Positions 1 through 42,767 of a stretch of DNA of 42,767 nt are shown piece after piece. This DNA is from Eggerthellaceae bacterium (GTDB taxonomy: Bacteria; Actinomycetota; Coriobacteriia; Coriobacteriales; Eggerthellaceae). Under the pieces are notes generated by a model, which was not told the origin of the DNA, searched no databases, and saw nothing but the letters and a program-made list of their open reading frames with translations. The number at the start of each line of letters is the position of its first letter. Position 1 is the stretch's first letter. A program made the translations under genes and the position numbers. The stretch spans positions 1 to 42,767 of the forward strand of contig JAFUBE010000786.1 of NCBI GenBank assembly GCA_017460365.1, read 5' to 3'.

Positions 1-399
1 CGCCTTGACGGTCCTGATGGTGGCGTCCTCGACGTACTTCTTCCCGCACAGCTCGAGAAGGTAGACCTTGATACCCGTGTCGGTCTCCTCCCACTTGCCG
101 TTGAGGTAGAGATAGTGGAGGGTGTCGCCGAACTTCTCGCGAATATCATTCGCAATAGCTGGGATGGACACCGTTCGGGTGTCCTTGACGAGGCGACCGT
201 CACCGCGAAGAAGGATAAACTTGGTGAGGTCGTCGTTTGTCCGGACGATGACCCTCGTTCCGAAGAACCGGGTGGCCTCCTTCTGCAAGTCGCGGGAGAA
301 GTTGAGCGTGCAGTTCTTTCCGCTGATCCAGATGTACGTCTTGTTGGTGCGCCCACGGTTGCTGGCGCCAACCTCGTTGAAGTCGTCAAGCTTAATCAT
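1..399 (-). CDS. hypothetical protein (3' end runs off the window)
   Basis: Absent from the ORF track because it is open-ended. ATG at 399-397 is preceded by GGAGAAAGCGAA. Translates MIKLDDFNEVGASNRGRTNKTYIWISGK... with no stop down to position 1. Confidence 0.6.
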   Translation of the reverse strand, partial: MIKLDDFNEVGASNRGRTNKTYIWISGKNCTLNFSRDLQKEATRFFGTRVIVRTNDDLTKFILLRGDGRLVKDTRTVSIPAIANDIREKFGDTLHYLYLNGKWEETDTGIKVYLLELCGKKYVEDATIRTVKA

Positions 400-440
400 T
401 TCGCTTTCTCCTATTTGGAATCGTCAGAGCATCGAATATC

Positions 441-490
441 ACAAGACAAAGAGCAAGAGCCCTCGTTGCTTTCAGCGAGAACTCTTGCTC
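441..490 (-). terminator. intrinsic terminator after 506..769
   Basis: Minus strand GAGCAAGAG(TTCTCG)...(CGAGGG)CTCTTGCTC stem followed by TTTGTCTTGTG. Confidence 0.6.
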
Positions 491-505
491 ATGGTAGGTA
501 GTTGG

Positions 506-769
506 CTACGCCTCGGTGTCGGCGTTGTCCTTGCCCTTCGCCAGAAGGTTCAGCATCTCGTTGACAGACTCGTCGAGCTTCTTCTTGGCGGCGTCCACCC
601 GGATCGCGTCGCGGACCATAAGAGCCACGTAGACACCACACGCCACGATACCGGCGGCCGTGATGGTCCTAGTCATGCTCTTGTAGTCCTTGATGGACTC
701 CTCGGCGACTCGCTTCGCCTCCTCCTCAGTGAGCTGAACGATGTGCTGAGTCTGGTTGATGGTGATCAT
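506..769 (-). CDS. small single-pass membrane protein (MITIN paralog 1)
   Basis: 87 aa. AAAGGAGAAAGCA precedes the ATG. Hydrophobic core ITAAGIVACGVYVALMV. Has its own promoter and terminator. Confidence 0.7.
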   Translation of the reverse strand: MITINQTQHIVQLTEEEAKRVAEESIKDYKSMTRTITAAGIVACGVYVALMVRDAIRVDAAKKKLDESVNEMLNLLAKGKDNADTEA

Positions 770-795
770 TGCTTTCTCCTTTCTTAGTCACCTAC

Positions 796-824
796 CTCAT
801 AAGATGACCTGCAGTTTTTGCGAA
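796..824 (-). promoter_or_regulatory. promoter repeat copy 1: TTCGCA-N17-TATGAG(GTAGG)
   Basis: Minus strand TTCGCAAAAACTGCAGGTCATCTTATGAGGTAGG, 26 nt upstream of the ATG at 769. One of 8 copies with identical 17-nt spacing. Confidence 0.55.
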
Positions 825-869
825 CAAAGGGCAAGAGCCCCTGCCGAATATCACAGGAGCTCTTAGCCC
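823..869 (-). terminator. intrinsic terminator after 881..1108
   Basis: Minus strand GGGCTAAGAGCTCC-loop-GGGGCTCTTGCCC followed by TTTGTT. The U-tract overlaps the -35 box of the next promoter. Confidence 0.55.
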
Positions 870-880
870 TTGGGGGTCGT

Positions 881-1108
881 CTACTCTTCTGCTGGAGCGT
901 CCTTGACGCTCTCTTCCTTCTCACTCTTCATCTTCTTCCGGGTGGCGATGATTTCCATCGTCGAGATGGCGATGGCCGCGCCAAGGGAAACGACTGCGCT
1001 CGCGGCTTCAATCGCGAACAGAATCTTTCCCTGGCGGGCCGCGTCCTCGGCGAGCTTCTCAGCAGCCTCACCGGCAACCTGAAGGGTGTTGTTGTTGATA
1101 GTAATCAT
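881..1108 (-). CDS. small single-pass membrane protein (MITIN paralog 2)
   Basis: 75 aa. AAAGGAGGAACCA precedes the ATG. Shares the MITIN N-terminus with 506..769. Hydrophobic AIEAASAVVSLGAAIAI. Confidence 0.7.
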   Translation of the reverse strand: MITINNNTLQVAGEAAEKLAEDAARQGKILFAIEAASAVVSLGAAIAISTMEIIATRKKMKSEKEESVKDAPAEE

Positions 1109-1137
1109 TGGTTCCTCCTTTGAACGAGTTTCCTACC

Positions 1138-1166
1138 TCCATAAGAGGGGCTGCAGTTTTTGCGAA
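1138..1166 (-). promoter_or_regulatory. promoter repeat copy 2: TTCGCA-N17-TATGGA(GGTAGG)
   Basis: Minus strand GGATATTCGCAAAAACTGCAGCCCCTCTTATGGAGGTAGG, upstream of the ATG at 1108. Confidence 0.55.
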
Positions 1167-1174
1167 TATCCACG

Positions 1175-1495
1175 TCAAAGGGTGAAACCGACGCGCTTGC
1201 GCAGTACGTCAATGACCTCTTGGCCGTCGATCTCTTTGCTACACAGCGTTTGAAAATATCCACCTCGGAAGAATCGCTCGAGCTCGAGCCTCCTGCCGGT
1301 GGCGTAGTTGAGCTCTCTCGTTACGCTTTCACCGCCGCTGCATGCACGCTTCCTGAGCCTCATTATCTTGAGAAGCGTCGTGACGTAATCGTTCGTAGCC
1401 TTCTCAATGACTCGAGCCGCAAGTTCCTTGTACTGGCCGATAAGCCCATCGTCGCTCATGTTGCTCGTGCCGCGGTATCTTCCCCTGGAATCCAT
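1175..1495 (-). CDS. hypothetical protein
   Basis: 106 aa. AGGAG lies about 6 nt upstream of the ATG at 1495. Helical-looking; no motif recognised. Confidence 0.6.
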   Translation of the reverse strand: MDSRGRYRGTSNMSDDGLIGQYKELAARVIEKATNDYVTTLLKIMRLRKRACSGGESVTRELNYATGRRLELERFFRGGYFQTLCSKEIDGQEVIDVLRKRVGFTL

Positions 1496-1510
1496 CGTTC
1501 ATCTCCTAGT

Positions 1511-1549
1511 CAGAAAATATAAGGAGGGCCCGAATAACTCGAGCCCTCC
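1511..1549 (-). terminator. intrinsic terminator after 1576..2145
   Basis: Minus strand GGAGGGC-TCGAGTTATTCGG-GCCCTCC followed by TTATATTTTCTG. Confidence 0.65.
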
Positions 1550-1575
1550 ACCAACGCATCGCGTGCGAGGATGCC

Positions 1576-2145
1576 CTAGAAGGGGACCTCCTCATTGTCC
1601 CAAGCCTCCTGCTCGTCTTCCCACTCCCGGGCGAACGGGCTCTGACGCATGTAGAACCAGCCTTCGGCGAGATATGCCGTGATGGTCGGGTCGCCGGTCT
1701 CGGGGTCGGTCCTGACCCACGGGTGAATGACGAGGTTGACCTTGTCGAATGTGCGACCGTCAAGTGTGTCGGCAATATCCTCGGTGATCTGGGTACGCTT
1801 CCTGCCAGTCACGAGCCACATCTCGGGCGGGCGAACGTCAAAGCGAACCTTGACGGGGATGAAGCAGCTGGACGGGCCGTCCTGCTCGTCGCTGTTCCTG
1901 TGAATCTTCACCTTCCAGCCGTCGTTGATCATCGCTTCGCTGAGCGGAATATCATTGCCCTGATCGTCGGTAGCCATGGTATTGGGGATGTTGACACAGA
2001 ACGTCCTGTTGCCTGCGCCGTTCACGACGCGTCCGTTGTAGGACTTCTCGAGACCTGCGAAGTTGGTGGAGAAGATTCGCGCGTCCTCGATCACGAGGTC
2101 GTCGACGTACTTGCGGGCGGGGCGGGTGTTGATAGCGTTAGCCAT
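1576..2145 (-). CDS. putative ssDNA-binding protein (T7 gp2.5-like / DUF2815-like) with acidic C-terminal tail
   Basis: 189 aa. GAGAGGA RBS. Sits directly downstream of the polymerase gene. Tail is REWEDEQEAWDNEEVPF. Overall layout resembles phage gp2.5-type SSBs; this is from memory, not aligned. Confidence 0.4.
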   Translation of the reverse strand: MANAINTRPARKYVDDLVIEDARIFSTNFAGLEKSYNGRVVNGAGNRTFCVNIPNTMATDDQGNDIPLSEAMINDGWKVKIHRNSDEQDGPSSCFIPVKVRFDVRPPEMWLVTGRKRTQITEDIADTLDGRTFDKVNLVIHPWVRTDPETGDPTITAYLAEGWFYMRQSPFAREWEDEQEAWDNEEVPF

Positions 2146-2160
2146 TTCGTTCAGTCCTCT

Positions 2161-5100
2161 CTAGAATGGAAGATCGTCGTCTTCGTCTATAGTCACAAAT
2201 GCCTCGAAGTCTCCGTACTCTTCGATGGCTGTCTTGGCCTCGTTGACCAGGACGTCAAAATATCCACGGTTGACCGTGTCCTCCTTATGAAGCTGCCGGA
2301 CTATCTCACTCTCCTTCCAGCGATATCCCTTGGCGCCGGTTGCCGTGTAGTACTTGCCGTCCTTGCCTCGGTAGAGGTTTCCTCCACCGCTACCAGGAAG
2401 GACTGGCACGAACTCACCGACTCGTCCGATGAAGACGTACTTGTGTCCCTCGGCGACCTTGGCCTCGAGCTTCTCTCGCTCGCCGAAATATCCGTGGGCC
2501 TCGTCGTACATCTTCCGCTTGCGGCCAGTGAGCTTCTCCTGGTCCTTGTCCCAGATATCAAGCATCTGCTCGTAGACGGACACGTCGGGAAGCTCCTCGT
2601 CGAAGTCGAGATACAGGGCGTCCTTCGTCGACTGCGTCACGCACAGGTCGCTGAATATAATCGGCTCCTTGGAGAAGAGCGTCTTGAACACGTAGGGCAC
2701 TTGGAACTGCTTGCCCGTTGCCGTCCATTCGCCGGCATGCGTCGCGCTGAGCGGAGACCCGTGCGCGATGTACACGGCGTCGTTGACGAGGCATAACTTG
2801 TCGTACGTCGCCTCGTGCTCGAACGAATATCCGTACTTCTTGGCGAACTCCATGCAGAACGAGATGATGTCGCCCGTGGCGTCGGGAATCTTGATGGAGT
2901 CCGTCTTGATGTGGGCGACCGTGAAGCCGCGCTTGACGACCTCGTCTTGAAGCGTCTTCATAAACAAAGCGCCCCGAAGGGCGATGATGTTGTTGACGTT
3001 CCTCGGGTCCTTGAACGGATTGTCATACGACCCGTATGTTTGACCGTATACTGCATTGATGGCAATCTTTAGCGCTCCCGACAGTGCCTTCGCCTGCTTC
3101 TCGTCCGTGAGGTACTTGGCGAGCTTGCCGTCGAACAGGCCACGGGCGGAGTCGTAGTCGCCGTGCTTGATGAGGATTCGCGCGTCGAGAATATCCTTGT
3201 ACCGCTGCGTGTACTCACCGAAGTAGTTCATGTTGATGGCCGAGTTCGGGTGCATACTGGCGATATCAAGGAGCGCTACGTTGTGGTAGATGCCGGGCTC
3301 CGCGTATACGTACCCGCCGAAACCAAGGTCCGCCCCACGGTACATGTTGTGCATCTTGTGGTCGTCGCCGAGCTTGAACTCGTAGCCCGGGAACTCCTTG
3401 GAGAGGTCAGTGTACTCGAGCTTCGGGTGCCTCTCGTTGCCAAATATGATGCGCGTGGTGAGGCTGTTCGTCGTGTCGTTTACAGTGCCTCCGGCCAAGT
3501 CGGCCAGAATCTCCCTCGCGACGAAGTCCGCCTGGCGGGCATTGAAGACAGCCTCAGTGGCCGCCACATCGTTCTTGCAGTACTCGACAACGAGCTTCTT
3601 CTGCTCCTCCGTGATGGGTTTGTCCCAAGGAATTCCCATCTCCATGTGGTGAATGCCAAGCTCGATCTCCCACTTCTTCAGGCTCTGCTTCTTCGAGCAG
3701 AAGTCGTAAATATCCGTGTAGCTAATGTTGCGAGCCTCGTTGAAGCCCTTGCTGTTGTTGGCGATGATGTCTTGTGACAGCCTGTATAGCTGCTCGTTCG
3801 TATAGCCCATGATGCGGCCCCACAGAATATGGTTGTCATACCTGCGGTTGTTGAAGCCCACGAGCTTGAACCTCGTGATGCTCTCAACCCTCTCTGGCGA
3901 CGGATCGACCATCTCCAAATATCCGCCGTCCTCGCCGGGCTGCTTCAGGACAATGCAGAAGAAGTTCGGATACACCTCGCAGTCGAAGAACATGATTGTG
4001 TCGTCGGCTTCGAACGAAATATCTTCCGTCGCATCTTCTGACTTGAACTTCATCTGCCTGAACTGCTCGAGACAGTATTTGGCGTTGTTTGTGGAGTTGA
4101 GTGCGAAGACGTATACCGCGTCTGCCATGTCGCTGACATCATAGTGAAGGCCGCTGTCATAGGCCTCGTCAAGCAGCTTCTTGATGAAGTCGACGCTCGG
4201 CTTGGTTGCCGGGTGGTACTCCTTCGCCAAGTTCTTCCTGATGAGGGTTCTCAGGCCCTTCTCACTTTGAATCGTCTGCCCCTCTACCATCTTTACCCCC
4301 TTTCTCTCAACAGTCGGAAGCCCAGAGCCGATGTGCGAGATCGGTAGAGAGTTCGTCATGGCAGATATCCGCCTGAGCGAGCTCTTCCCGGAGAAGACCT
4401 TGATCTCGATTCCATCTGCGTAGCTTCTTGCTAGCTCGTCTACGTTTCCGTCAAATATGTAGTGAAGATGCAGCCCGTTTCCGGACTTGCTGACCTCGGC
4501 ATACGTCGGAGGCCATGACTCTGCGGCGGCCAGGTTCTTGGCAAGGTTCTTCTCTCCGTCGTCGCCCCTCAGGTCGAAGTCGATGACGATGTGCTCGTCG
4601 GGAAGAAGCACGTAATGGAGCCTCTTCGTGTCGATATCACGCAGCGTCGTCGTGGACTTGTCCCACGGGAGGCTCGGCACGCCATGGTCGTTCGCGTACT
4701 GGGCCTTGCAGTCCGCGCAGGCCTCGTCAAATATCCGCCCGTCGCCGTCGAGCACAATCCACGGCGCCTTAGCCGTCTGCTCTTCGGCGCTCTCCTCCTC
4801 GTTGACCGGAGGAGCGAATATCCGGTAGAGGTTCCTGACCCTTGTTCCGTCGGCAGTGACGCCTCTCGGTAGGAACTCCTTGAAGTAGTTCTTGAGTTCC
4901 TCCTTGAAGACGCGTTTCGGGTACGGGTAGGCGACCTTAGCTTCGTCGCAGTACACTTGGTAGAGCTTCCATGCGCTCGACAGCGTCGTCTCGCTTCCCT
5001 CGTCGAAAATATCCCACGAATCGAGGACGAAGTTGTAGAAGTCGTTCGTCCCCTCAAGCATCCTCAGCGGAATATAATTGTCGTAGTAGAGCGGGTCTTC

Positions 5101-6084
5101 GAGGTACACGTCGCGGCAATGGCTTGCGATTCCGCCAAGCTCGAACTTCACTTTCGCCATGTCCCTCGAATATCTTTCGAAAGGGAGCTTTTCACCGCTT
5201 GGCGAAACGTCGATAATTCGCCTGATGAGGCCTGACTTGGCATCCGTGATTCTGACCGGCTTGTTGGTACCCATGAACAGGAAGCTCCTGAAGCGCTGCG
5301 TATACACGGAACGGAACTTCTCGTTGACAGCCATCTCCTCATGGGATACGAGGCTGTTGATGCGCGTGTTCGTCTCGATGCGGGCTAGATTGCCGTCGTG
5401 CTGGATGGCTATGAGCGGATTCGACTTGAACGCCTCGAGAGCGAACGAGTTCGACGTCGAGCCAAGCGCCTCGCTGTCGAACGTCGCGTAATATCCATCG
5501 AACAGCTGCTGGATGATGTTGAGGACCGTGGACTTACCTGTTCCCGCGGCGCCGTACAGAACGAGGAACTTCTGAATCTTGACACTGTCACCGGTGACTA
5601 TCGCGCCTATGGCCCACTCGATCTTCCTTCGCTCCTCGTCAGAGTACAGAGTCGACATGAGCTCGTCGTATGCCGGGGTGGCGCATTCCACCAATGGGTA
5701 GCTAAGCCGCTTGGACGCGTAGCTCTCCTTCGTAATCTCCGTGTCGGAGAATATCACGCGGTCGTCAAGCGAATGGAACGAGTCGCGGAGCTGCCTCTGG
5801 CAATACTTGTGCCACCGGTCGATTACGCCGCTCTCCGCGTCCTGCATGAGGAGCTTCTTGGCGTCGCCATAGCCGTTCTCGTCGGCCCACTGCAGAATAT
5901 CCCTATCGATGAGAGCTACCGCGTCGTACTCATCTGTAGACCAGAGACCGCGGTCTTCGTTCCAAATGGCGTAGAAGTCTCCGCCACGTATCATGAGGTC
6001 CGTAGTCTTCTTAACCATGAACCGTGGATACACTTCGATGCCGGCCTTCGTATCTTTGACTCCGACACGCATAAAGTCCAGCAT
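2161..6084 (-). CDS. SF3 (P4/D5-type) helicase - AEP primase - family B DNA polymerase fusion protein
   Basis: 1307 aa. GAGAGGAGG RBS.
- Helicase, aa ~177-275: Walker A LVLYGAAGTGKST, Walker B IAIQHDG, FMGTNKP.
- AEP primase, aa ~499-542: VIDFDL and SGNGLHLHY.
- PolB, aa ~697-1307: Exo I FFDCEVY, Exo II NNRRYDNHIL, Exo III YCKNDV, motif A LDIASMHPNS, motif B KIAINAVYGQTYG, motif C IKTDSI. Confidence 0.8.
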   Translation of the reverse strand: MLDFMRVGVKDTKAGIEVYPRFMVKKTTDLMIRGGDFYAIWNEDRGLWSTDEYDAVALIDRDILQWADENGYGDAKKLLMQDAESGVIDRWHKYCQRQLRDSFHSLDDRVIFSDTEITKESYASKRLSYPLVECATPAYDELMSTLYSDEERRKIEWAIGAIVTGDSVKIQKFLVLYGAAGTGKSTVLNIIQQLFDGYYATFDSEALGSTSNSFALEAFKSNPLIAIQHDGNLARIETNTRINSLVSHEEMAVNEKFRSVYTQRFRSFLFMGTNKPVRITDAKSGLIRRIIDVSPSGEKLPFERYSRDMAKVKFELGGIASHCRDVYLEDPLYYDNYIPLRMLEGTNDFYNFVLDSWDIFDEGSETTLSSAWKLYQVYCDEAKVAYPYPKRVFKEELKNYFKEFLPRGVTADGTRVRNLYRIFAPPVNEEESAEEQTAKAPWIVLDGDGRIFDEACADCKAQYANDHGVPSLPWDKSTTTLRDIDTKRLHYVLLPDEHIVIDFDLRGDDGEKNLAKNLAAAESWPPTYAEVSKSGNGLHLHYIFDGNVDELARSYADGIEIKVFSGKSSLRRISAMTNSLPISHIGSGLPTVERKGVKMVEGQTIQSEKGLRTLIRKNLAKEYHPATKPSVDFIKKLLDEAYDSGLHYDVSDMADAVYVFALNSTNNAKYCLEQFRQMKFKSEDATEDISFEADDTIMFFDCEVYPNFFCIVLKQPGEDGGYLEMVDPSPERVESITRFKLVGFNNRRYDNHILWGRIMGYTNEQLYRLSQDIIANNSKGFNEARNISYTDIYDFCSKKQSLKKWEIELGIHHMEMGIPWDKPITEEQKKLVVEYCKNDVAATEAVFNARQADFVAREILADLAGGTVNDTTNSLTTRIIFGNERHPKLEYTDLSKEFPGYEFKLGDDHKMHNMYRGADLGFGGYVYAEPGIYHNVALLDIASMHPNSAINMNYFGEYTQRYKDILDARILIKHGDYDSARGLFDGKLAKYLTDEKQAKALSGALKIAINAVYGQTYGSYDNPFKDPRNVNNIIALRGALFMKTLQDEVVKRGFTVAHIKTDSIKIPDATGDIISFCMEFAKKYGYSFEHEATYDKLCLVNDAVYIAHGSPLSATHAGEWTATGKQFQVPYVFKTLFSKEPIIFSDLCVTQSTKDALYLDFDEELPDVSVYEQMLDIWDKDQEKLTGRKRKMYDEAHGYFGEREKLEAKVAEGHKYVFIGRVGEFVPVLPGSGGGNLYRGKDGKYYTATGAKGYRWKESEIVRQLHKEDTVNRGYFDVLVNEAKTAIEEYGDFEAFVTIDEDDDLPF

Positions 6085-6105
6085 CTATCGCCTCCTCTCA
6101 TGTGG

Positions 6106-6639
6106 TCATTCGAGTACTCCTTCGTCGCGGAGAACTTCGTTTAGGTACGTGGCGGCCTGACGCCAAATATCACGCTTGCGCATATCGATGTCCGGGTTCG
6201 CTGTCGTGAACAATCCTCCGTTGCCGTCTGGAGAATATCCGCCAGACAGAAAACGCCTGACTATGCTCGTCACGGCGTTCTTGTCATAGCGCTTGTTAGT
6301 CATGAACGTCAGACCTAGTGAGTCGACCATTTCCCAAAACCAATAGGCCGTCCTGTCCCAGTCGGCCGTTCCGCCCATGGTGTCCCGTTCAATCCTCTCG
6401 GCAAGACTCACCATCATCTCGAACATCCCAACGGGGCGGTCGATGTCCACACCAGTGACCTGCCTGCGGAATATCAGTGCGTCCTTGAGGCGGTTCTCGT
6501 CGAACCTGACTTTCGGAACGAACTCCGTGTTGTGCAGTTGCCAGAGAAGGAGCGTGTAGTCCCTAGGACTCGGGGTATGCTGGCTCACGACCATCTGGCA
6601 GAGCTGGTCAAAGTAGATGGCCCAATTATCAATACCCAT
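6106..6639 (-). CDS. hypothetical protein
   Basis: 177 aa. GGGAGGTGACGA precedes the ATG. Trp-rich and globular-looking. Confidence 0.6.
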   Translation of the reverse strand: MGIDNWAIYFDQLCQMVVSQHTPSPRDYTLLLWQLHNTEFVPKVRFDENRLKDALIFRRQVTGVDIDRPVGMFEMMVSLAERIERDTMGGTADWDRTAYWFWEMVDSLGLTFMTNKRYDKNAVTSIVRRFLSGGYSPDGNGGLFTTANPDIDMRKRDIWRQAATYLNEVLRDEGVLE

Positions 6640-6642
6640 TCG

Positions 6643-7233
6643 TCACCTCCCTGTCACCTCCTTGTACGGAAGGTCGTCATAAAGCACCTCATACTGTGTG
6701 AATGTGTTGTCGTTCTCAACGTAGAGCGGCTCGTCACTCGTCTCGAACCTCTCGCTTAGGTAGTCGGCAAGGCCGTACGGACCCATGGTTGACAAGGCGG
6801 TCGGCTCGTCGACAATATCATCCGTGACACTGTCGGCAAGGATTCCGTCGGCATAGAACGTTCGCGACTCGTGGTCGTAATATCCGTTGTATCCGCCCTC
6901 GAGATACTCGTCTTCCGTTATTAGGTGTATGCTTCCGTCTTTCTCTGGTGTCTCGATCTCGCCATGTCTGTCATGCTGACAGACGTCGGAATAGTTGAAA
7001 TATCCGAGACTTTCGACGAGGTTGTTGTATGTGGTCCACTGTCGTGGCTCGTCGAATTCAATCCTCATCTGTCCATCGTCCTCGACAATGGTCGGACACT
7101 CTGGAATATCCGTGCCTTCATCGGCGCCCTGCTCCGGCCTACCCTTCCTCAGAAGGAAGAGAAGGGCCGCAACGGCGATTCCCGTCACGGCCCCAGCGGA
7201 GAATATCAGGACGTCGCGCTCTTGCGGACTCAC
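6643..7233 (-). CDS. membrane-anchored acidic protein
   Basis: 196 aa. GTG start 8 nt after the upstream stop. N-terminal TM segment LIFSAGAVTGIAVAALLFLL followed by a D/E/Y-rich domain. Confidence 0.55.
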   Translation of the reverse strand: MSPQERDVLIFSAGAVTGIAVAALLFLLRKGRPEQGADEGTDIPECPTIVEDDGQMRIEFDEPRQWTTYNNLVESLGYFNYSDVCQHDRHGEIETPEKDGSIHLITEDEYLEGGYNGYYDHESRTFYADGILADSVTDDIVDEPTALSTMGPYGLADYLSERFETSDEPLYVENDNTFTQYEVLYDDLPYKEVTGR

Positions 7234-7241
7234 CTCGAGTC

Positions 7242-8177: not shown

Positions 8178-8212
8178 TCTTGTCATCCTTTCTCTGTGGT
8201 CGAATATCACGT

Positions 8213-8869: not shown

Positions 8870-8891
8870 GCTTAACCTCCTTCGCAAATAT

Positions 8892-8929: not shown

Positions 8930-8936
8930 AAGTGAC

Positions 8937-33884: not shown

Positions 33885-33896
33885 GTGCTACCTCCT

Positions 33897-34518: not shown

Positions 34519-34542
34519 GGTCACTCCATTTTGAATTTCTGG

Positions 34543-36564: not shown

Positions 36565-36571
36565 TTACTCG

Positions 36572-37804
36572 TTAAACCTCCTCTTGCGAAATATCCGGTC
36601 CATTCGCTTCGGCGTTCTGGGGCTGGTTCGGCTGGCTGAGGTTCGGGTTGTCGAGGACGTCCGCCTTGTCGCTCATGGACGGCTTCATGCCGATCTTCTG
36701 CCTGAGCTCATTGGAGGACATGATCTCGTTACGCCTCATCCTGTCAGCGATGTCGGCGAACTTGCTGACGGGGACGAGCCTGAACGGGTCCCTGAAATAT
36801 AGGATTGACTGTCGCTGAGAGATCGCGGTCTTGCTTAGGAACTTGCGCTTCATCTCATCGACGATTGCCGAAATGATTGGCTCGATGGTCCTTGAGTAGT
36901 AGTTGAGCATCGTCTCTTCGTTCGCGGTCCCGTCGAGGATGCTCTGCGTGATGCCAAGCTGGCTGTAGAGCATATTCGTCAGGTACTCGATCTGTGAGAG
37001 GATGTTGTTCTCAACCGAGCGGTTCAGCTGCGTGATGTGCTCCGTGGCGTCGGTGTAAGCGATTCCGTACTTCGAACCCGCAAGCTGATTCTCTATGTCT
37101 TTGCGTCGGTTCTCAGCCTGGACTCGTCGGGCCTCCGTCTTGATGGTGTACGGCAGCTGGATGATAAGGTCTAGCTTTCCCGAGCTCGTCTGCTCATCGA
37201 CGTTGTCTAGCAGCGCTAGTTTGTGCACAAGGCGCTGCATGGTCGATGACGGCTCGTTAATTACGGCGTAGAACGGATTCTCGACGATGGCAACCGATTG
37301 CTTAGGAAGGGTAATCTCTTCCTTCTTGCCAGTCCTGTCGTTATAGAGAAGGACTCGAACGTGCCTCGGCTGCCACCGGACGACCTTACCAGTCCTAAGC
37401 GTGACGATGTCGTATGACGTCGACACGGTCGGGTCGAGCGTGGTGTCTACGGGGACGATGGCGACATGCCCCTCGTCGAGCATCGACATTACGACGTCCT
37501 GAATGAATGCGCGGCTCGTCTGGTCGATGTTGGCTTCAAGGTTGAGACAGCGGTTCAGCCCGGACTTGATTGGTTCGAGGTATCTTCCATCCTCGTCGAG
37601 CCTTACGTGCTCGATTGAGATGGACGCCGCATCCGTGGCGATTCGGTTGTAGACCGCCGTGATGATGGACTTCTCGTTGCCCCTGGTGAACCTGACACGG
37701 TCCGGTCGGTAGCTGTCTATGCTTCCGCCATACGTCCACGCGGTCATCGGCTTTTCATCGATAAACGCGTTCCAGCCGTGCTTAAGGCGGTCTAGAAAAC
37801 CCAT
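36572..37804 (-). CDS. portal protein
   Basis: 410 aa. GGAGGAAATTCAAA-ATG. Size and position upstream of the protease-capsid gene. Confidence 0.65.
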   Translation of the reverse strand: MGFLDRLKHGWNAFIDEKPMTAWTYGGSIDSYRPDRVRFTRGNEKSIITAVYNRIATDAASISIEHVRLDEDGRYLEPIKSGLNRCLNLEANIDQTSRAFIQDVVMSMLDEGHVAIVPVDTTLDPTVSTSYDIVTLRTGKVVRWQPRHVRVLLYNDRTGKKEEITLPKQSVAIVENPFYAVINEPSSTMQRLVHKLALLDNVDEQTSSGKLDLIIQLPYTIKTEARRVQAENRRKDIENQLAGSKYGIAYTDATEHITQLNRSVENNILSQIEYLTNMLYSQLGITQSILDGTANEETMLNYYSRTIEPIISAIVDEMKRKFLSKTAISQRQSILYFRDPFRLVPVSKFADIADRMRRNEIMSSNELRQKIGMKPSMSDKADVLDNPNLSQPNQPQNAEANGPDISQEEV

Positions 37805-37863
37805 TTTGAATTTCCTCCATGGTTTATAAAGGGCAATCTGGGTTATACGCGCCCATTCATTGC

Positions 37864-38028
37864 CTATGTTTCATCTCTCCACAGGGGAAGAGGCAACACG
37901 TCCGGGACGCTTTCTCGAGCAGAGATGTCTCTGTCCACGCGTTTTAGCGCATCAGAAAATAGCGAACGAACAATACCGATGGCGGCCAATAAAACAGCAC
38001 ACCCATTAATGCGTCTGTTATTGTCCAT
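37864..38028 (-). CDS. possible small membrane protein
   Basis: 54 aa from ATG 38028 (GAGGA 5 nt upstream, inside the end of 38018..39193). Hydrophobic GCAVLLAAIGIV. Confidence 0.3.
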   Translation of the reverse strand: MDNNRRINGCAVLLAAIGIVRSLFSDALKRVDRDISARESVPDVLPLPLWRDET

Positions 38029-39193
38029 GTTGATCCTCATACAGTATTTTCCTAACGTAGTATGGAGAAACGCCAACCGTATCGGCAATCTTATCTATGC
38101 TATTGCCGGATGTAGCAGCTAGTGATCGTATTTGAGCATCTCGAGATGCATGCTGCGATTCAGACTCGCGCTTACGCTCTGCCGACTTCTGCTTTCTCAC
38201 AGGGTCGTTAACCCAGTCGCTGGCTGCACCAGCTGCGGATGCTATGCCGACGGCACCAAGTGCCCAACCATATATGCTATGTGATGCCCACCAACCCAAG
38301 TATCGAGCGCCCAATATAGCACGTTCGCGATGGTCGGCTTTAACCATCTCATCGACTGGAACAAGTCGATACGAAGCATTTTTAACAATGTCACGTCCGT
38401 TTTCAACTTGTCCGCCAAAGAAGATGGTCGGAGCTTTCGCTTTGAACCCACCCTTGATGTCGTTGATGTCAATGACGGCGTCATAACCCTTGTCGTGCAA
38501 ATGCTTATAGAATATGTCTTGAGCTCGTCTTGCATCTTTATCGTCAGCGATCAAGCCTTCGCGATTAAAACTCTCATAAGATCCACGAAACCGGTTAATT
38601 GCAAGCTTTCTAAATTCTGGATTCGTTTTTAACAGTTCGTGATAAGCTTTATCTCCACTAGCAATTGAAGCAACTTTTGCTCCCTTTGTCTTGATTGTAA
38701 TCTCATGCACAGGCTTCGAATCATTTGGATGAAACTGTGCTTGCTGTTGTCTTCTTAGATTACCGAGAAGACCAACATACTTTGCTTGATCACGCTTTTT
38801 TGTCGTCGCATAAAACGCTCTGTCGTGCAAATGCGTAGGGTCGTCATCAACGGTAATGCGTTTAATGGGCGTGTCCTCTGGTATGTACTGATCGAGAACA
38901 TACTTATTCGCATAGTGAACTGCCCCAGCAACAGCAACAGTCACAGCAACCGCGCCAAGCGCAATAGCGACCTTCTCACCGCGAATTCTAGACTCTGCAT
39001 GAGCACGTGCTTGTTCATCGGAATATCCTGAAGCTCTGTACTTTTCTTCCAATTTCTGACGGTGAGTCTTCTTCGTTCCGTCTTCATTGTAACGTCTTTT
39101 TCCGGCTTCGGTGAGCGTTCCATCCTTATTCTGGAAACGACGAACACCCCACTTCATGCCCTTGATACCATGGTGATACAAATAATCGGTCAT
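38018..39193 (-). CDS. GIKGMKWG-leader paralog 1 (two TM segments, C-terminal HTH-like motif)
   Basis: 391 aa. GGGAGG RBS. ATGA overlap with the terminase stop. N-terminus MTDYLYHHGIKGMKWGVRRFQNKDGTLTEAGKRRY. TM segments IALGAVAVTVAVAGAV and WALGAVGIASAAGAA. C-terminus GNSIDKIADTVGVSPYYVRKIL. G+C is locally about 40-45% (two 60-nt lines counted). Confidence 0.65.
   Translation of the reverse strand: MTDYLYHHGIKGMKWGVRRFQNKDGTLTEAGKRRYNEDGTKKTHRQKLEEKYRASGYSDEQARAHAESRIRGEKVAIALGAVAVTVAVAGAVHYANKYVLDQYIPEDTPIKRITVDDDPTHLHDRAFYATTKKRDQAKYVGLLGNLRRQQQAQFHPNDSKPVHEITIKTKGAKVASIASGDKAYHELLKTNPEFRKLAINRFRGSYESFNREGLIADDKDARRAQDIFYKHLHDKGYDAVIDINDIKGGFKAKAPTIFFGGQVENGRDIVKNASYRLVPVDEMVKADHRERAILGARYLGWWASHSIYGWALGAVGIASAAGAASDWVNDPVRKQKSAERKRESESQHASRDAQIRSLAATSGNSIDKIADTVGVSPYYVRKILYEDQHGQ
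39129..39193. repeat. direct repeat (5' end of paralog genes), copy A
   Basis: 61 of 65 nt identical to 42501..42565. Confidence 0.85.
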
Positions 39194-40926
39194 TCAAAAG
39201 CCTCCCGATTGAGCTTGTATGCGACGAAGGCGTCCATCATGGCAGCGACGGAGTCAATCTTCGCTTCGTATCGCTTCTTGAGGAGCTTCCTGTTTCCGTT
39301 GGTGTCCTCAATGGTTATGCAGTTGCCCATCGCGAATGTCATGAGTTCCTCGTCAAACAGGAGCATCCTCTCCTCGGCCAACTTCTTCAGCTCGCCTAGC
39401 GGGACAGACTCGGTCTTTGAGCCCTGGATGACCTTCTCGACGCCGTAGTTACCGTTCTCGGCGCACCATCGCTCGACGAACTCTCTCGCGTTGTACGGGT
39501 CGTATCCGAACGTCCTGACGTCGTAGCCGACGCGCTCGATGTACATGTCGAGGTCGTCGTAGACCTCCATCATGTCGAGGATCGTCCCGTTGAGCACGAT
39601 GAGGCTGCCCTCGTTCATGAACGACTCGTACTTGACGCGCATGGCGGCGGGCAACTTCGAGAAGGTGAGCTCGGAGATGTAGCATCTGGTCTTCACGCCG
39701 AACTCGCCGTTCCTCAGAGGGAACAGGAACGTGAACGCGCAGAAGTCGTTGCCCTGGGAGAGGTCCGCACCCATCGAGCACGAGAGTTGCCAGAAGTCGC
39801 GTCGACCATGGGGGAGTGTTTCCTCGTAGGTAAAGTAATAGGTGAATCCCTCGGTCGGGATTCCGAACCTCTTCGCGAGAATATCGTTCCTCGCGGCTGG
39901 CGCCTTCTCGGCACGCTCGACGTCTAGCTGGTATGTCTCGTACGTGACGGTATGGCCGAGGTTAGGGTTCGCCTTGACCCACATCTCCGGGTCGGCGACC
40001 TCCTTGACGTCGTCGAGACGGTACCACCAGATGGACACGTGTGGGTTGTCGTACTCGCCCTTGAGGATGTCCATCAGCTCCATTTTGATTGTGTCGCCAG
40101 CACCGTTTCGTACAGTACCCTCGGACGACGTCGCGACGATGAGGTAGTCGTCGACCTTGGATGCTCCCTGCTCGATTGCTCCGATTACGTCCTCACGAAT
40201 GTCCCCAGAGAGCCACTCGTCTACGGTCGCTATCTTGCAGCGAAGTCCCTGGAGCTTGTCGATAGACATCGGTCGAATCTCGAGAAGGGAGTTCGTCAGG
40301 AAGTTCTCGACGCCCTTCTTGGTAGACGAGAGCTTCTGACGATTGGCCCTTGAACCGGTGGTGTTCTGCAGCGAGCCCTCAGTCAGGAACTTGAACAGCG
40401 GGCCTCTTGCCCTGGCTATCGCCGTCCTGATAGGGCTCATGACCTCCTCCGACTGTTTCATTGTCGGGGCGGTCGTGATTTGATGAGTCGTCGAAGTGTC
40501 GACGTTGAGGGCGTACCCCTGAATCAGGGAGTCATACAAGGACTTGGCCGCCCCTCGCCCGATGATCAGGTACTGCTTGTTCGTGAGGCGCTTCTTGACC
40601 ATCTTGTTGACGTACCGCTTCTGTTTTGGGTCGAAGACAGTGCGCTCGACGAAGTAGTACCACCCAAACACCTGCTCTGCCCACACCTTGAAAGTGTCGA
40701 GCAGTCTGAGGTCTGACCCGTCGGTCAACGTCATCTCAGCTTCCGAGAACCGGACCCATCCCTCGACGGCATCTGGGTCGTAATAGACCCCAGGATTCGC
40801 GATGAGCCGGTCGATGCGGTTCATCTCCATCGAGATCTCGCGGTTGACGGGAATCTCGCCGACAAGAACCTTGTCACGGAAGCGCCCGTAATACTTAGGC
40901 GTGGCCGTGTTCGATAGTCTGCCCAC
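39190..40926 (-). CDS. terL: terminase large subunit
   Basis: 578 aa from GTG 40926 (GGAGGTGACC-GTG). N-terminal KYYGRFRDKVLVGEIPV. P-loop-like IIGRGAAKS. Typical size. Confidence 0.8.
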   Translation of the reverse strand: MGRLSNTATPKYYGRFRDKVLVGEIPVNREISMEMNRIDRLIANPGVYYDPDAVEGWVRFSEAEMTLTDGSDLRLLDTFKVWAEQVFGWYYFVERTVFDPKQKRYVNKMVKKRLTNKQYLIIGRGAAKSLYDSLIQGYALNVDTSTTHQITTAPTMKQSEEVMSPIRTAIARARGPLFKFLTEGSLQNTTGSRANRQKLSSTKKGVENFLTNSLLEIRPMSIDKLQGLRCKIATVDEWLSGDIREDVIGAIEQGASKVDDYLIVATSSEGTVRNGAGDTIKMELMDILKGEYDNPHVSIWWYRLDDVKEVADPEMWVKANPNLGHTVTYETYQLDVERAEKAPAARNDILAKRFGIPTEGFTYYFTYEETLPHGRRDFWQLSCSMGADLSQGNDFCAFTFLFPLRNGEFGVKTRCYISELTFSKLPAAMRVKYESFMNEGSLIVLNGTILDMMEVYDDLDMYIERVGYDVRTFGYDPYNAREFVERWCAENGNYGVEKVIQGSKTESVPLGELKKLAEERMLLFDEELMTFAMGNCITIEDTNGNRKLLKKRYEAKIDSVAAMMDAFVAYKLNREAFE

Positions 40927-40997
40927 GGTCACCTCCGCAAATATCGCAAGCCCTCTTACGGAGGGCTTTGGCCAACAACAAACAGAAAGGAACAAAG

Positions 40998-41354
40998 ATG
41001 AACAACTACGAGTTCGACCAGCTTCGCATCAACGCAAAGAGGAAGGTCATCGCTGTTCGCGACGAGATCGCCGCAGTGACCAGAAGAACCGTGGAGTGGG
41101 CAACCGAGAACCCTGATTTGGCAATGTCAGTCATCGGCGCAACCATCTTCTTCACCAACAAGGCGTGGAAGATCGGCAACGCCGTGGCGGATACGCGCCA
41201 CCAGAATTCGAAAATCTACGACCACTCGCTCGGCATGTACTGGGAGCTGAGGCATCCGCTCACGACCAACGAAAGGATCGCCATCGAGCGCAGACGGAAG
41301 AGCGGTGAGAGCTACGGGCAGATTCTCAGCGACATGAGGCTGTTGAAGCGCTAG
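40998..41354 (+). CDS. plus-strand small membrane protein (the only convincing + strand gene)
   Basis: 118 aa from ATG 40998 (GAAAGGAACAAAG-ATG). Hydrophobic LAMSVIGATIFFTNKAW. Followed by its own terminator. Confidence 0.6.
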   Translation: MNNYEFDQLRINAKRKVIAVRDEIAAVTRRTVEWATENPDLAMSVIGATIFFTNKAWKIGNAVADTRHQNSKIYDHSLGMYWELRHPLTTNERIAIERRRKSGESYGQILSDMRLLKR

Positions 41355-41376
41355 AAGATTTCCAGAAAGACGGGGT

Positions 41377-41409
41377 CTTGCGTAAACATCGCAAGGCCTC
41401 TTCTTTTTT
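41377..41409 (+). terminator. intrinsic terminator (possibly bidirectional)
   Basis: CTTGCG-TAAACAT-CGCAAG followed by GCCTCTTCTTTTTT. Confidence 0.7.
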
Positions 41410-41941
41410 ACTTGTCCTTCAGCACCGAGTAAATCGTGACCGCACTAACTGCAATAGAGGAAGCAGCAGCGACGTACTGAAGGCCTGTTGCGACACGCTC
41501 CATCGCCGTTGGCTCCTCGGTAAGCCTTGTGTAATTTGTCTCCATGTTGAGACGGTTGATGATCTGCTGGAGTTCCTTGTCAGAAGTACGCGCCATCTCC
41601 TCTTGAGTGAGGGTCTTGTGGTTGCCGGCGTAACGATTAGACGGCTTTCCGCTCTTCGCAATATCGGAAACCGTGTTTGCAATAGTGTGTGCGCTCTTAT
41701 CAATCTTGCTCATGCGCTTGACGTCTTTGTCATTGACAGAATTCAAACGCTGCTTGGCTCCGCGCACACGACTGTAAGTTTTTGGGGCAAGGGCATCAAA
41801 GTCAGACTGAGAATAGTATCGCTTCTTACCAGCCTCGGTCAAAGTTCCGTCGGTATTCCTGAACCGTCGGATGCCCCACTTCATGCCTTTGATGCCGAAG
41901 TGACACAAATGATTACCGTTAATCGCGTTTGGCGTAAACAT
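41408..41941 (-). CDS. GIKGMKWG-leader paralog 2 (C-terminal TM)
   Basis: 177 aa from ATG 41941 (AAGGGA 8 nt upstream). ...HLCHFGIKGMKWGIRRFRNTDGTLTEAGKKRYY... C-terminal hydrophobic LQYVAAASSIAVSAVTIYSVL. Confidence 0.6.
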   Translation of the reverse strand: MFTPNAINGNHLCHFGIKGMKWGIRRFRNTDGTLTEAGKKRYYSQSDFDALAPKTYSRVRGAKQRLNSVNDKDVKRMSKIDKSAHTIANTVSDIAKSGKPSNRYAGNHKTLTQEEMARTSDKELQQIINRLNMETNYTRLTEEPTAMERVATGLQYVAAASSIAVSAVTIYSVLKDK

Positions 41942-41953
41942 GGCAATCATCCC

Positions 41954-42565
41954 TTAATTGTCAAGTTCGGCTAGTGCTCTCATCGCACCCAATCCAGCAC
42001 TGGCAACAACGATAGCCCCGATTGAGACCATCGTGTCATGACGAGTAAGATCATCGATGATTTGATCACCGTACTTTTCACGCATAATTCTATCGGTTTC
42101 CCTGCCGGCGTCGATAAGTGGCTTGTTCATACCGAAGAATGAATATACATACTCGTCACTAACAAGTCTCTTGGGGAAAGTCTTTTTGGCCCATGCGATC
42201 TGATTGTTCTTGTATCGTTCTTTCCGGTCGCTAACGTAATCCTTACGAACAATCTGCTCGTCACGTCTACGTTCTAGCTTCTTAACAGCATCGTCGGACG
42301 CGCCAGAAGCCTTGGCAATGGCAAGCTTACGCTCAGAACGGTCAATCGCTCTATCCATTCTGCGATTATACCGTTCGTTATCTCGGTCAAGACTCTTGCC
42401 AATACGCTGCACTTGCCGGGTTCGGAATCCTCTAGCGAAGCCAGCGTCGGCTTCGCCATAGTATCGCTTCTTACCCGCAGGCGTAAGTGATCCGTCTGTG
42501 TTCTGGAACCGGCGAACACCCCACTTCATGCCCTTGATGCCGTGGTGATACAAATAATCGGTCAT
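41954..42565 (-). CDS. GIKGMKWG-leader paralog 3 (C-terminal TM)
   Basis: 203 aa. AAAGGAGAATCA-ATG. MTDYLYHHGIKGMKWGVRRFQNTDGSLTPAGKKRYY. C-terminal MVSIGAIVVASAGLGAM. Confidence 0.65.
   Translation of the reverse strand: MTDYLYHHGIKGMKWGVRRFQNTDGSLTPAGKKRYYGEADAGFARGFRTRQVQRIGKSLDRDNERYNRRMDRAIDRSERKLAIAKASGASDDAVKKLERRRDEQIVRKDYVSDRKERYKNNQIAWAKKTFPKRLVSDEYVYSFFGMNKPLIDAGRETDRIMREKYGDQIIDDLTRHDTMVSIGAIVVASAGLGAMRALAELDN
42501..42565. repeat. direct repeat (5' end of paralog genes), copy B
   Basis: 61 of 65 nt identical to 39129..39193. Confidence 0.85.
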
Positions 42566-42579
42566 TGATTCTCCTTTGA

Positions 42580-42767
42580 CTATCGGTACTTGTCGGGGCT
42601 GTATCCTCTGGAAAGCATGGTTGCTTCGCGTCCAACGTGACGACCCAACGTACTGCCGAGAGTTCCAACCGTGCTTGCCCCAATGCCTGCGATAATAGTG
42701 ACGGTGGAGTCATCAATACTCATGTCTCCGTGTTCACGAAGAATATCTCTTGTTATTTGACCAGCCC
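42580..42767 (-). CDS. possible 3' end of a gene entering from beyond the window (or a 47-aa ORF from ATG 42723)
   Basis: The frame is open from the window edge: ...AGQITRDILREHGDMSIDDSTVTIIAGIGASTVGTLGSTLGRHVGREATMLSRGYSPDKYR*. Confidence 0.3.
   Translation of the reverse strand, partial: AGQITRDILREHGDMSIDDSTVTIIAGIGASTVGTLGSTLGRHVGREATMLSRGYSPDKYR

Follow-up and report, generated by a model that had tools for sequence, protein, structure and literature searches.

The DNA analysed here is a stretch of 42,767 nucleotides from an Eggerthellaceae bacterium assembly, called the window below, and with one exception its genes lie on the minus strand. The features needed for the analysis are as follows.

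1..42767, minus strand: array of 82 GATATT copies and 113 ATATT cores, consensus K-G-ATATT-Y (other strand: 0 GATATT, 2 ATATT)
1..18100, minus strand: high-density zone of early, replication and lysis genes, with 63 GATATT and about 4 ATATT cores per kb
832..865, minus strand: intergenic 13-bp hairpin with GATATT in its loop
1576..2145, minus strand: phage ssDNA-binding / annealing-type protein (PF24083), adjoining the polymerase gene
2161..6084, minus strand: replication protein of 1307 aa, with SF3/D5-type helicase, AEP primase-like core and PolB-like polymerase
8887..8916, minus strand: TTGACA, 18 nt, GATATT and then AAGGAGG, the sole copy with a good upstream -35
18101..42767, minus strand: low-density zone of terminase, portal, capsid and tail genes, with 19 GATATT
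40968..41354, plus strand: sole opposite-strand gene, a 128-aa ORF (118 aa in the calls for the source contig)

An exact count gave 82 copies of AATATC and none of GATATT on the plus strand, with 44 up to position 11185, 63 up to 17674 and 19 further on, reproducing the hand counts of a preliminary description of this DNA. The variants mentioned there are also present (GATATC, given as about ten, 10 times; AATATG 17 and AATATA 13 times), as is its flank consensus KGATATTY, the base 5' of the hexamer being G in 40 and T in 30 of the 82 copies and the base 3' being C in 40 and T in 29. Its chance estimate of about 5 copies per strand agrees with the 4.8-7.1 expected under Markov models of order 0-2, and its G+C estimate of 57-60% was slightly high, the computed value of 56.9% falling just under that range. 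On the coding (minus) strand no hexamer is more frequent, or departs further from expectation (z about 35), than GATATT. The imbalance of the 5-mer core is even stronger, with 113 AATAT and 2 ATATT on the plus strand, and the true core of the word is B-ATATT-Y, wider than GATATT alone. The original observation is therefore confirmed, and is stronger than first stated.

Most of the sites (88%) are inside coding sequence. Four copies first listed as non-coding (435, 12993, 13076 and 14173) actually fall within small called ORFs, copies 142 and 435 belonging to a gene of 133 aa that the source-contig calls place at window positions about 97-498, and our gene calls add intergenic copies at 17012 and 33064. 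The copy in the hairpin loop at 832-865 and the one beside a -35-like box at 1165 are both real. Another copy, at 26655, is enclosed by a 12-bp stem, these hairpin-associated copies being exceptions. The opposite-strand gene has no copy in either orientation and is thus uninformative on whether the motif turns with the genes, and because almost all genes are co-directional the polarity of transcription and that of the genome (replication) are inseparable.

As had been proposed, the excess is not the effect of a single dipeptide or codon. All three reading frames are used (34 copies as GAT-ATT, 20 as xGA-TAT-T and 18 as xxG-ATA-TT, with 10 intergenic), and 500 synonymous-codon shuffles gave 12.1±3.0 in-gene copies against the 72 observed, with a maximum of 22 that does not approach 80 copies; codon or dipeptide bias is therefore rejected. 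Of the 69 Asp-Ile pairs 34 are written GATATT, against about 6% expected from codon usage, and in the context xxG-Ile-TTx the rare ATA codon was chosen in 18 of 19 cases. The reverse complement AATAT, in turn, is depleted on the coding strand relative to synonymous shuffles, with 2 observed versus 10.9±2.9 in the window, 2 versus 22±4 in Gordonia phage Secretariat and 35 versus 65±5.5 in locus L009. Individual sites are also retained: in an alignment with a relative about 80% identical, 18 of 22 sites were kept versus 33% for all hexamers, and in the replication gene, where AATAT is absent, many of the 19 ATATT cores recur at the homologous codon in as many as 13 of 20 relatives.

The pair correlation of sites in successive 20-nt bins was 0.02, 0.23, 0.49 and 0.81 and then about 1, which is a soft exclusion below about 60-80 nt; gaps shorter than 55 nt in the window or 78 nt in Secretariat were absent where about 12 were expected. 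No helical phasing or lattice was found among the sites. The regional description given earlier, with high density in the early, replication and lysis genes and low density in the tail genes, held. In the high-density zone the mean gap is 234 nt, none being below 55 nt, and the motif is written in 55 of 85 compatible peptide contexts (65%), versus 17 of 73 in the low-density zone, where the head genes are at chance level and the density climbs gradually across the tape-measure and tail genes. Sites are threefold enriched in short intergenic spacers, with a peak 21-35 nt 5' of start codons. This peak falls just upstream of the ribosome-binding site, and some sites lie between the ribosome-binding site and the ATG.

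Among related phages, a group defined by the shared helicase-primase-PolB fusion and a YonO-like RNA polymerase, the core B-ATATT-Y is enriched in about 30 loci with a G+C of 29-61%, including phages of Gordonia, Streptomyces and Faecalibacterium and many gut and environmental contigs. The word is a feature of the whole phage supercluster, and we found no published description of it. One lineage (L015) has CCAAAAT in its place, and Arthrobacter phage JEGGS and Lactococcus phage P092 are group members without the bias. The location of the zone varies by lineage: in HotFries it is limited to tail and lysis genes, and in Secretariat, which has site-free gaps of 6.7 kb and a right-most 3 kb without sites, it stops exactly where the RNA polymerase gene starts. 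In most of 36 diverse loci the RNA polymerase gene has about one third of the upstream word density.

These data establish selection for the word together with its polarity, spacing, zonal distribution and conservation in relatives. Host Chi and the host sigma-A -10 element, the consensus TATAAT of which is at chance level, were excluded as explanations of the array, as were hairpin signals, there being no general structural context around the copies. Because the word is kept in relatives whose hosts belong to different phyla, it points to an oriented signal whose reader is encoded by the phage. The preliminary description offered, with no choice among them, a binding, modifying or nicking site, an oriented replication, recombination or packaging signal, and an RNA-level signal. 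Among these roles an oriented signal with such a reader is favoured, and a purely RNA-level signal is disfavoured because the reverse complement is purged genome-wide, so that the earlier interpretation is partly supported.

The identity of the reader and the events at a site we infer from these patterns and from comparison with known systems. Most likely the word marks where a polymerase of the phage itself starts or enters. K-B-ATATT-Y would be the oriented recognition word of a phage-encoded nucleic-acid enzyme, with about one site per 230-280 bp in the early and middle genome, and we tentatively suggest that the group's HTH-bearing YonO/RdRP-like RNA polymerase, a single-subunit enzyme with sigma-region-4-like helix-turn-helix domains, uses it as its minimal site of recognition or initiation. 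Co-directional sites would load or start this polymerase in the sense direction, reverse-oriented copies would be purged because they would fire antisense transcription, and sites nearer than about one polymerase footprint (60-80 bp) would add nothing. Late genes, the polymerase's own gene included, would be served differently and so be left at chance-level density.

The HTH domains of the polymerase match Sigma70 region 4 models above cutoff. In L015, the one lineage in which helix and motif co-vary, the second HTH has a unique recognition helix, SPNTVKNYL, versus (N/P/G)ES(S/T)VRxLL in 19 others, and the polymerase has diverged further than the divergence of this lineage's replication protein would lead one to expect, whose AEP-like region is itself not unusually diverged. 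Very short oriented words suffice for minimal phage promoters such as the T4 late TATAAATA and the 4-nt template motif of the AR9/phiKZ non-virion RNA polymerase, and GATATT and CATATT are -10 hexamers of SPO1 gp33/34 (late) and of B. subtilis sigma-E. In the window, the copy 18 nt after a perfect TTGACA at 8887..8916 is plausibly a sigma-A-type promoter with GATATT as its -10 hexamer. A related phage polymerase, crAss-like gp66, gives early transcripts without an upstream promoter motif and prefers melted DNA (10.1101/2020.03.07.982082). The polymerase gene is absent from the contig of the window, the genome being incomplete, and consequently the polymerase link rests on relatives. Against this reading, about 80 initiation sites in 19 kb would be far denser than any promoter set known to us; minimal-promoter sets count tens per genome and lie upstream of genes, whereas GATATT sites are mostly intragenic, and transcripts from many of them would have no ribosome-binding site. 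Those systems differ also in that the window yielded no sigma-like gene. JEGGS and P092 are unbiased though members of the group, loci L161, L167 and L177 have the common helix yet are poor in ATATT over the 10 kb preceding the polymerase gene, and the early region of Secretariat has separate, well-conserved promoter-like ATTACA-N17-TATAAT elements that alone could explain initiation.

The main rival, which we consider unlikely, is lagging-strand priming, in which the AEP-like domain would begin RNA primers at copies of the word in the lagging-strand template, with forks moving with transcription. An AT-only pentamer is scarce by chance at high G+C, so selection would maintain the sites, and leading-strand-template copies would be purged because priming there would stall the fused helicase-polymerase. 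The AEP-like core (residues about 490-550, with the DxD- and SxH-type motifs VIDFD and SKSGxGIHLHY) does lie between the helicase (about 116-423) and PolB-like (about 676-1100) parts of the replication protein, but its AEP matches score under the Pfam cutoffs, and no solved structure was matched in a profile search. No other primase was identified among the scanned genes. The regular spacing, with its 60-80 nt exclusion and 230-280 nt mean, is comparable in size to the Okazaki fragments of archaea and eukaryotes, and the zone density of about 4 per kb equals what chance alone gives in AT-rich relatives like P092, which fits a fixed need visible only at high G+C. ATP would be the first nucleotide of a primer, as both word types have T as their last base. 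Known primase sites (5'-GTC-3' for T7 gp4, GTG for pRN1 ORF904) are likewise short template words setting the RNA start, and the phage AEP-like domain fused to helicase and polymerase adds to the likeness; however, their cores are trinucleotides, common by chance and in T7 neither enriched nor strand-biased, and we know of no primase site purged from the other strand. Priming also sits poorly with the chance-level head and RNA polymerase genes, the 6.7 kb gaps of Secretariat, a zone that differs among lineages (tail and lysis genes only in HotFries), and the change to CCAAAAT in L015 with no unusual change in the AEP region.

It is also doubtful that these are polar sites of another phage protein, whether a stoperator-like roadblock or silencer, a KOPS-like translocase guide, or a phage-specific Chi-like signal serving the group's own helicase-nuclease pair, with the permissive orientation accumulating and the non-permissive one purged. 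One orientation is indeed in excess and the opposite one purged, density increases along the genome as KOPS become denser and more skewed towards their target at dif, the exclusion zone could equal a protein footprint, and relatives have DEAD-box helicase, VRR-Nuc protein and RecB-like exonuclease genes just upstream of the polymerase gene. Chi, KOPS and SRS, words of bacterial chromosomes that direct a translocating enzyme, are also over-represented and strand-skewed, but they are host-specific G-rich 5-8-mers with about one site per 5-13 kb, incomplete skews and, to our knowledge, no short-range repulsion, whereas GATATT is AT-rich, at about 4 per kb, fully polar and specific to a phage lineage. 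The stoperators of cluster A mycobacteriophages (L5 gp71 sites) are tens of asymmetric sites across a phage genome, all oriented alike with respect to transcription; they differ in being 13-14 bp long, in about 25-35 copies, mostly intergenic, matched to the immunity-repressor operator and found in temperate phages, whereas the present word has a 5-bp core (7-8 bp with flanks), 82-113 copies and a mostly coding location, and is present in lytic relatives too. About 25 early proteins of the window, scanned with Pfam and PHROG, matched only families of undescribed function and thus offered no candidate reader, phasing or a lattice is absent, and the site-free right-most 3 kb of Secretariat would be an unprotected end if a threat enters there.

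An RNA-level role is improbable. GAUAUU in early and middle transcripts would be the cleavage or binding site of a phage ribonuclease or RNA-binding protein, much as T4 RegB cuts GGAG, and would time early-message decay or translation. Enrichment in early and middle rather than late genes, clustering around translation starts on both sides of the ribosome-binding site and the few copies in hairpin loops are consistent with it, but it leaves the purging of the reverse complement on the coding strand, late genes included, unexplained, one or two sites per message would be enough where 65% of possible contexts are used, copies have no general structural context, and no ribonuclease was identified.

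Least probable by far is a by-product of defence and composition, with one orientation lost in escape from a Type III-like restriction enzyme dependent on inversely oriented sites and the other inflated by codon and strand composition: co-oriented genes do sum compositional skews, and the EcoP15I sites of T7 (CAGCAG, recomputed as 0 versus 36) have the same strand exclusivity with co-directional genes, but their kept orientation is only about twice expectation and tied to one host enzyme, whereas GATATT is at 6-17 times expectation even after codon control, evenly spaced by mutual repulsion, conserved site by site with rare codons recruited, and common to phages of different phyla and unrelated hosts. 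The chance-level frequency of the host sigma-A consensus TATAAT also speaks against it. Shuffles, site conservation and spacing refute this as a sufficient explanation; at most, defence evasion could have helped to purge the reverse orientation.

If the word is indeed read by the group's RNA polymerase, this enzyme or its HTH domains would favour GGATATTC, as duplex or single strand, above the reverse complement and scrambled versions.

By hand count, the preliminary description had reported 82 copies of AATATC on the + strand and none of its reverse complement GATATT, and exact counting returned the same 82 and 0, together with the same regional split of 44, 63 and 19 copies. Read on the coding (-) strand the word is GATATT, and this is the commonest single hexamer of that strand in a sequence of 56.9% G+C, where 5-7 copies would be expected under Markov models of order 0-2. 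The bias is stronger still for the 5-mer core, AATAT being found 113 times on the + strand versus 2 for ATATT. The information is limited to about eight positions, K-G-ATATT-Y, the base before being almost never A; suitable test oligonucleotides would carry GGATATTC, its reverse complement, or CCAAAATG.

All three reading frames are used by the 72 of 82 copies that lie within genes (34, 20 and 18 copies), and the other 10 are intergenic. Synonymous codons were permuted inside each gene, which preserves the proteins and the codon usage, and 500 such shuffles gave 12.1±3.0 copies of GATATT (maximum 22) compared with the 72 observed in genes. Asp-Ile is spelled GATATT in 34 of 69 cases, Gly-Tyr before a T-initial codon is nearly always written GGA-TAT-T, and of 19 Ile codons that stand between a G-ending and a TT-initial codon, 18 are the rare ATA. 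Codon or dipeptide bias was rejected as an explanation from the synonymous and codon-order shuffles and from the usage of compatible peptide contexts. Neither similar numbers of the two orientations on one strand (82 versus 0) nor about 80 copies in codon-preserving shuffles (12.1±3.0) were found, and the observation therefore stands: the word is a real, strongly selected and widespread feature.

The opposite orientation is purged from the coding strand. AATAT occurs there twice in the window versus 10.9±2.9 times in synonymous shuffles, twice in the Gordonia phage Secretariat versus 22±4, and 35 times in the related locus L009 versus 65±5.5. Individual sites are under purifying selection, as seen in the 5.9-kb stretch that can be aligned with L007, the closest relative, at about 80% nucleotide identity: 18 of 22 word sites are intact there, compared with only 33% of all hexamers. 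Within the replication gene, sites are found at homologous codons in up to 13 of 20 relatives, at a protein identity of only about 50-60%. The sites also repel one another at short range. Gaps in the dense zone have a coefficient of variation of 0.58-0.77 versus 0.98 for random placement, none is shorter than 55 nt in the window or 78 nt in Secretariat (about 12 expected), and the pair correlation climbs from 0.02 to about 1 across the first 80 nt and is then flat. Helical phasing or a lattice of sites was rejected, as no robust periodicity was found, helical or longer, and only the short-range repulsion remained.

The window covers most of one siphophage genome, being 42,767 bases of a contig of 45,145 bp (ENA ERZ28654953 scaffold_471). 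Nearly all genes are on the (-) strand, and their order along it is as follows.

Main features of the window, in (-) strand order
Start of the gene order, (-) strand: small genes and DUF7211 paralogs
41408-42565 and 38018-39193, (-) strand: DUF7211 paralogs, with a further one beyond the window at L158:1966-3638 (L158 being the source contig)
39190-40995, (-) strand: terminase
36572-37804, (-) strand: portal
34543-36564, (-) strand: capsid-protease fusion
26077-31632, (-) strand: tape measure, 1851 aa, among the tail genes
Around 16-18 kb, (-) strand: lysis genes
1-15 kb, (-) strand: early/replication region, with three DUF6353 paralogs, the replication protein and an ssDNA-binding protein
11644-12384, 8937-9821 and 7242-8306, (-) strand: the three DUF6353 paralogs, upstream of the replication gene
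2161-6084, (-) strand: replication protein, 1307 aa

The genome is incomplete because the contig ends shortly past the replication genes. The source contig is without the helicase, nuclease and RNA polymerase block found in relatives, and the nearest IMG/VR relative (IMGVR_UViG_3300021399_000021, 54,972 bp) extends upstream by about another 14 kb. Several DUF7211 paralogs make up the islands of lower G+C that surround the terminase gene, one of them sitting between terminase and portal, and the Faecalibacterium phage FP_oengus likewise has three copies of DUF6353 in the same place. A DNA-level search of deposited phages found no close relative. At the protein level the kin form a group that comprises FP_oengus, Lactococcus phages of the P087/P092 type and several actinobacteriophage clusters (Gordonia DJ, Streptomyces BI, Arthrobacter AM/AU and Rhodococcus ReqiPepy6). 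This group has been described in a preprint (10.1101/842583), with a YonO/RdRP-like RNA polymerase bearing helix-turn-helix (HTH) domains as its signature gene, and the repeated word goes unmentioned there. A search of bacterial genomes for the host turned up only three metagenome-bin contigs, and lysogeny modules sought by way of the integrase yielded only near-identical copies of FP_oengus. The DNA beside the integrase was considered as host DNA and rejected, this flank being the other end of the phage.

In the head genes the word is no denser than chance predicts; from there its density climbs across the tape-measure and tail genes and levels off at about 4 cores per kb where the lysis, early and replication genes lie. 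Among the peptide contexts compatible with the word, 65% of those in the early part encode it, compared with 23% of those in the late part. In complete relatives the enriched zone stops at the RNA polymerase gene. The final site of Secretariat lies 20 nt inside this gene, with none in the remaining 3 kb, and among 36 diverse loci the gene usually has about one third of the upstream density, with exceptions. The zone comprises the early and replication genes only in FP_oengus, the tail through replication genes in Secretariat and in the window, and the tail and lysis genes only in the Streptomyces phage HotFries. In this last phage (L006:10000-24000, 61% G+C) ATATT stands at 25 versus 2, clustered in the tail and lysis genes, and the replication gene and early region are free of sites, so the enriched zone shifts between lineages.

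All copies of the word are sense-oriented and most are intragenic, with intergenic spacers being about three times denser in the word than coding sequence. Two peaks were seen, one just upstream of the ribosome-binding site (-21 to -35) and the other between the ribosome-binding site and the ATG. A few copies lie in hairpin loops or open the T-rich tail after a hairpin. At 1523-1549, 2265-2278 and 17018-17035 on the (-) strand, a hairpin is directly followed by (G)ATATTT, with the word starting the T-rich tail, and Secretariat intergenic regions have the same arrangement. Presentation of the word in hairpin loops was rejected, given that flanking stems are no commoner than at random positions and that the local folding energy is not lower. 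A flip test found no usable block of opposite-strand genes in the window and more than 200 related loci, scans for reverse-strand genes gave only spurious ORFs within forward genes and one real reverse gene without a site, and no relative with an inverted gene block was found among the loci scanned. Because all genes point one way, the polarity of transcription is inseparable from that of replication.

The synonymous-shuffle screen was applied to the window and 40 related loci, and a hexamer containing ATATT ranked first in about 30 of the 40, over a span of 29-61% G+C. Phages of Gordonia, Streptomyces and Faecalibacterium show enrichment of the core, and so do diverse metagenomic relatives. 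The base preceding it is G in the window, FP_oengus, L007, L019 and L040, C or T in Secretariat, L010, L160 and L184, and T in L008, L009 and L028. In the same screen the Arthrobacter phage JEGGS, the Lactococcus phage P092 and a few contigs had no such word. One metagenomic relative, L015 (L015:1-18200, IMGVR_UViG_3300031760_000074), has no ATATT bias and carries CCAAAAT(G) in its place. There CCAAAAT is present in 37 copies versus 4.6 expected from synonymous shuffles, in all frames and in spacers, at about 3 per kb and with regular spacing; the strand ratio of CCAAAA is 56:6, with copies often placed immediately ahead of the ATG. Together, this re-specification in L015 and the recurrence of the word across two bacterial phyla point to a reader encoded by the phage and argue against a host enzyme.

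Perhaps the word is an oriented site at which the phage RNA polymerase would initiate or be loaded. We put this forward tentatively. Among the mechanisms weighed, it is the one that accounts for most of the features at once, namely the sense orientation of the sites, the purging of antisense copies everywhere, an exclusion zone of footprint size, zones that leave out the late genes and the polymerase gene, the excess of sites ahead of ribosome-binding sites and, in one lineage, the co-variation in L015. It also fits a related enzyme, the gp66 polymerase of crAss-like phage, which prefers melted DNA and gives early transcripts without an upstream promoter motif (10.1101/2020.03.07.982082). However, the density of the sites and their mostly intragenic positions speak against initiation at the word, as does the presence of separate promoter-like elements in Secretariat. 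In that phage at least nine early intergenic regions (L003:30500-37800) have a conserved element of about 35 nt, ATTACAcGCCcTATAATGAGACCCCTAcGAAAGGA, just before the start codon, which may serve as a promoter, either of the host type or for the phage polymerase.

The YonO/RdRP-like RNA polymerase gene is present in relatives and absent from the incomplete contig of the window, and more than 500 contigs carry it among the matches listed. Three HTH motifs in the RNA polymerase of the group, two of them N-terminal and one C-terminal, match Sigma70 region 4 models above cutoff. The second HTH contains (N/P/G)ES(S/T)VRxLL, nearly invariant in 19 of 20 aligned lineages; L015 has SPNTVKNYL. When compared with its nearest relatives, the L015 RNA polymerase (L015:16477-19278) has an identity ratio to the replication protein of 0.68-0.77, versus 0.89±0.08 for other pairs, and on this comparison of sequences it has diverged further than would be expected from its replication protein. 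The co-variation of helix and word in L015 is a lead from one lineage, weakened by L161, L167 and L177, related loci that have the common HTH helix, yet few sites in the 10 kb examined.

Priming of the lagging strand at the word by the archaeo-eukaryotic primase (AEP)-like domain of the replication protein seems rather unlikely. Such priming would explain how dense the sites are, how they are spaced and why their absolute density stays about the same whatever the G+C content, and the spacing statistics are compatible with those of Okazaki fragments, but the zones and the gaps of several kb in the head genes are left unexplained. The replication protein is a three-part fusion of an SF3/D5-type helicase (residues ~116-423), an AEP-like core and a PolB-like polymerase. 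The core (~490-550) has conserved VIDFD and SKSGxGIHLHY; its Pfam Prim-Pol and AEP-TOTE matches are below cutoff (E-values 0.02-0.04), PHROG primase matches span residues 491-572 of the protein, and a profile-based search with the AEP-like region gave no match among the structures in the PDB. A further point against priming is that in L015 the word has changed, although conservation of its AEP region matches that of ATATT-type relatives (ratio 1.05-1.10). A swap of specificity inside the L015 replication protein was rejected, as no domain stands out. Phage T7 was likewise rejected as a precedent for strand-biased primase sites, its known sites GGGTC, TGGTC and GTGTC being without strand bias. 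In T7 (L240) GCTGGT occurs 44 times on the coding strand versus 2 on the other.

Sites for some other polar protein-binding activity, be they stoperator-like, KOPS-like or a phage-specific Chi, we consider doubtful, as these models have no candidate reader. The word resembles Chi-like hotspots in being an over-represented, strand-skewed oligomer; it is common to phages with hosts of two phyla, which argues against a host Chi word, and a phage-encoded helicase-nuclease is a possible reader of the Chi type. Stoperators are asymmetric sites of 13-14 bp that lie mainly in short intergenic gaps and are identical to the early-promoter operator, whereas the word of the window has about eight informative positions and most of its copies in genes. 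There is a small chance that the mechanism is none of those named here. A signal acting purely at the RNA level is improbable, since it leaves the purging of the reverse complement unexplained.

As a by-product of restriction evasion and composition, which reproduces only the absence of one orientation, the word is very hard to account for. CAGCAG in T7, a case of Type III evasion, is absent in one orientation (0 versus 36 by strand), and the window is likewise short of GATATT (0) and ATATT (2) on the + strand. In Type III evasion, however, the retained orientation stays near expectation and the word is tied to the enzyme of one host, while the word of the window exceeds its expectation (72 versus 12.1±3.0), is conserved and evenly spaced, and is common to phages of several hosts. 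A host sigma-A -10 element or sigma-dependent pause was rejected: GATATT and CAAAAT both match nAnnnT, and one copy in the window lies 18 nt after a perfect TTGACA, but TATAAT itself is no commoner than chance predicts (1 on the coding strand, 4 on the other strand), which makes this reading unlikely.

Broadly, the word falls among the polar words that are over-represented in genomes, and it departs from each specific family considered in the tests that define that family. The searchable literature on the word, FP_oengus, YonO promoters, actinobacteriophage RNA polymerases and biased primase sites does not describe the motif. Taking these results together, we suggest, a little short of an even chance, that a large group of siphophages of Actinobacteria and Firmicutes carries a polarity code, in which selection at synonymous sites would keep a word of 7-8 nt at intervals of about 250 bp on a single strand and clear it from the opposite one. 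Its reader would be a phage polymerase (the two-barrel RNA polymerase with its HTH domains, or else the helicase-primase-PolB fusion), so that RNA synthesis could be started almost anywhere in the early and middle genes and in one direction only, and the word could be re-specified by lineage (ATATT to CCAAAAT).

If a phage enzyme does read the word, it would represent a new class of dense, genome-wide signal held at synonymous sites, and the coding sequence of a widespread phage group would be constrained by that signal. Because the group includes cultivable phages of Gordonia, Streptomyces and Faecalibacterium, these ideas can be tested at the bench. The word offers a handle on helicase-AEP-PolB replicases and on single-subunit RNA polymerases of the YonO/RdRP type, for which few promoters have been described, and it is a simple computational marker of the phage group and of strand orientation in metagenomic contigs. 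It may also explain in part why the G+C content and codon usage of these phages are far from those of their hosts, and it cautions against assuming that such phages can be recoded synonymously without effect.
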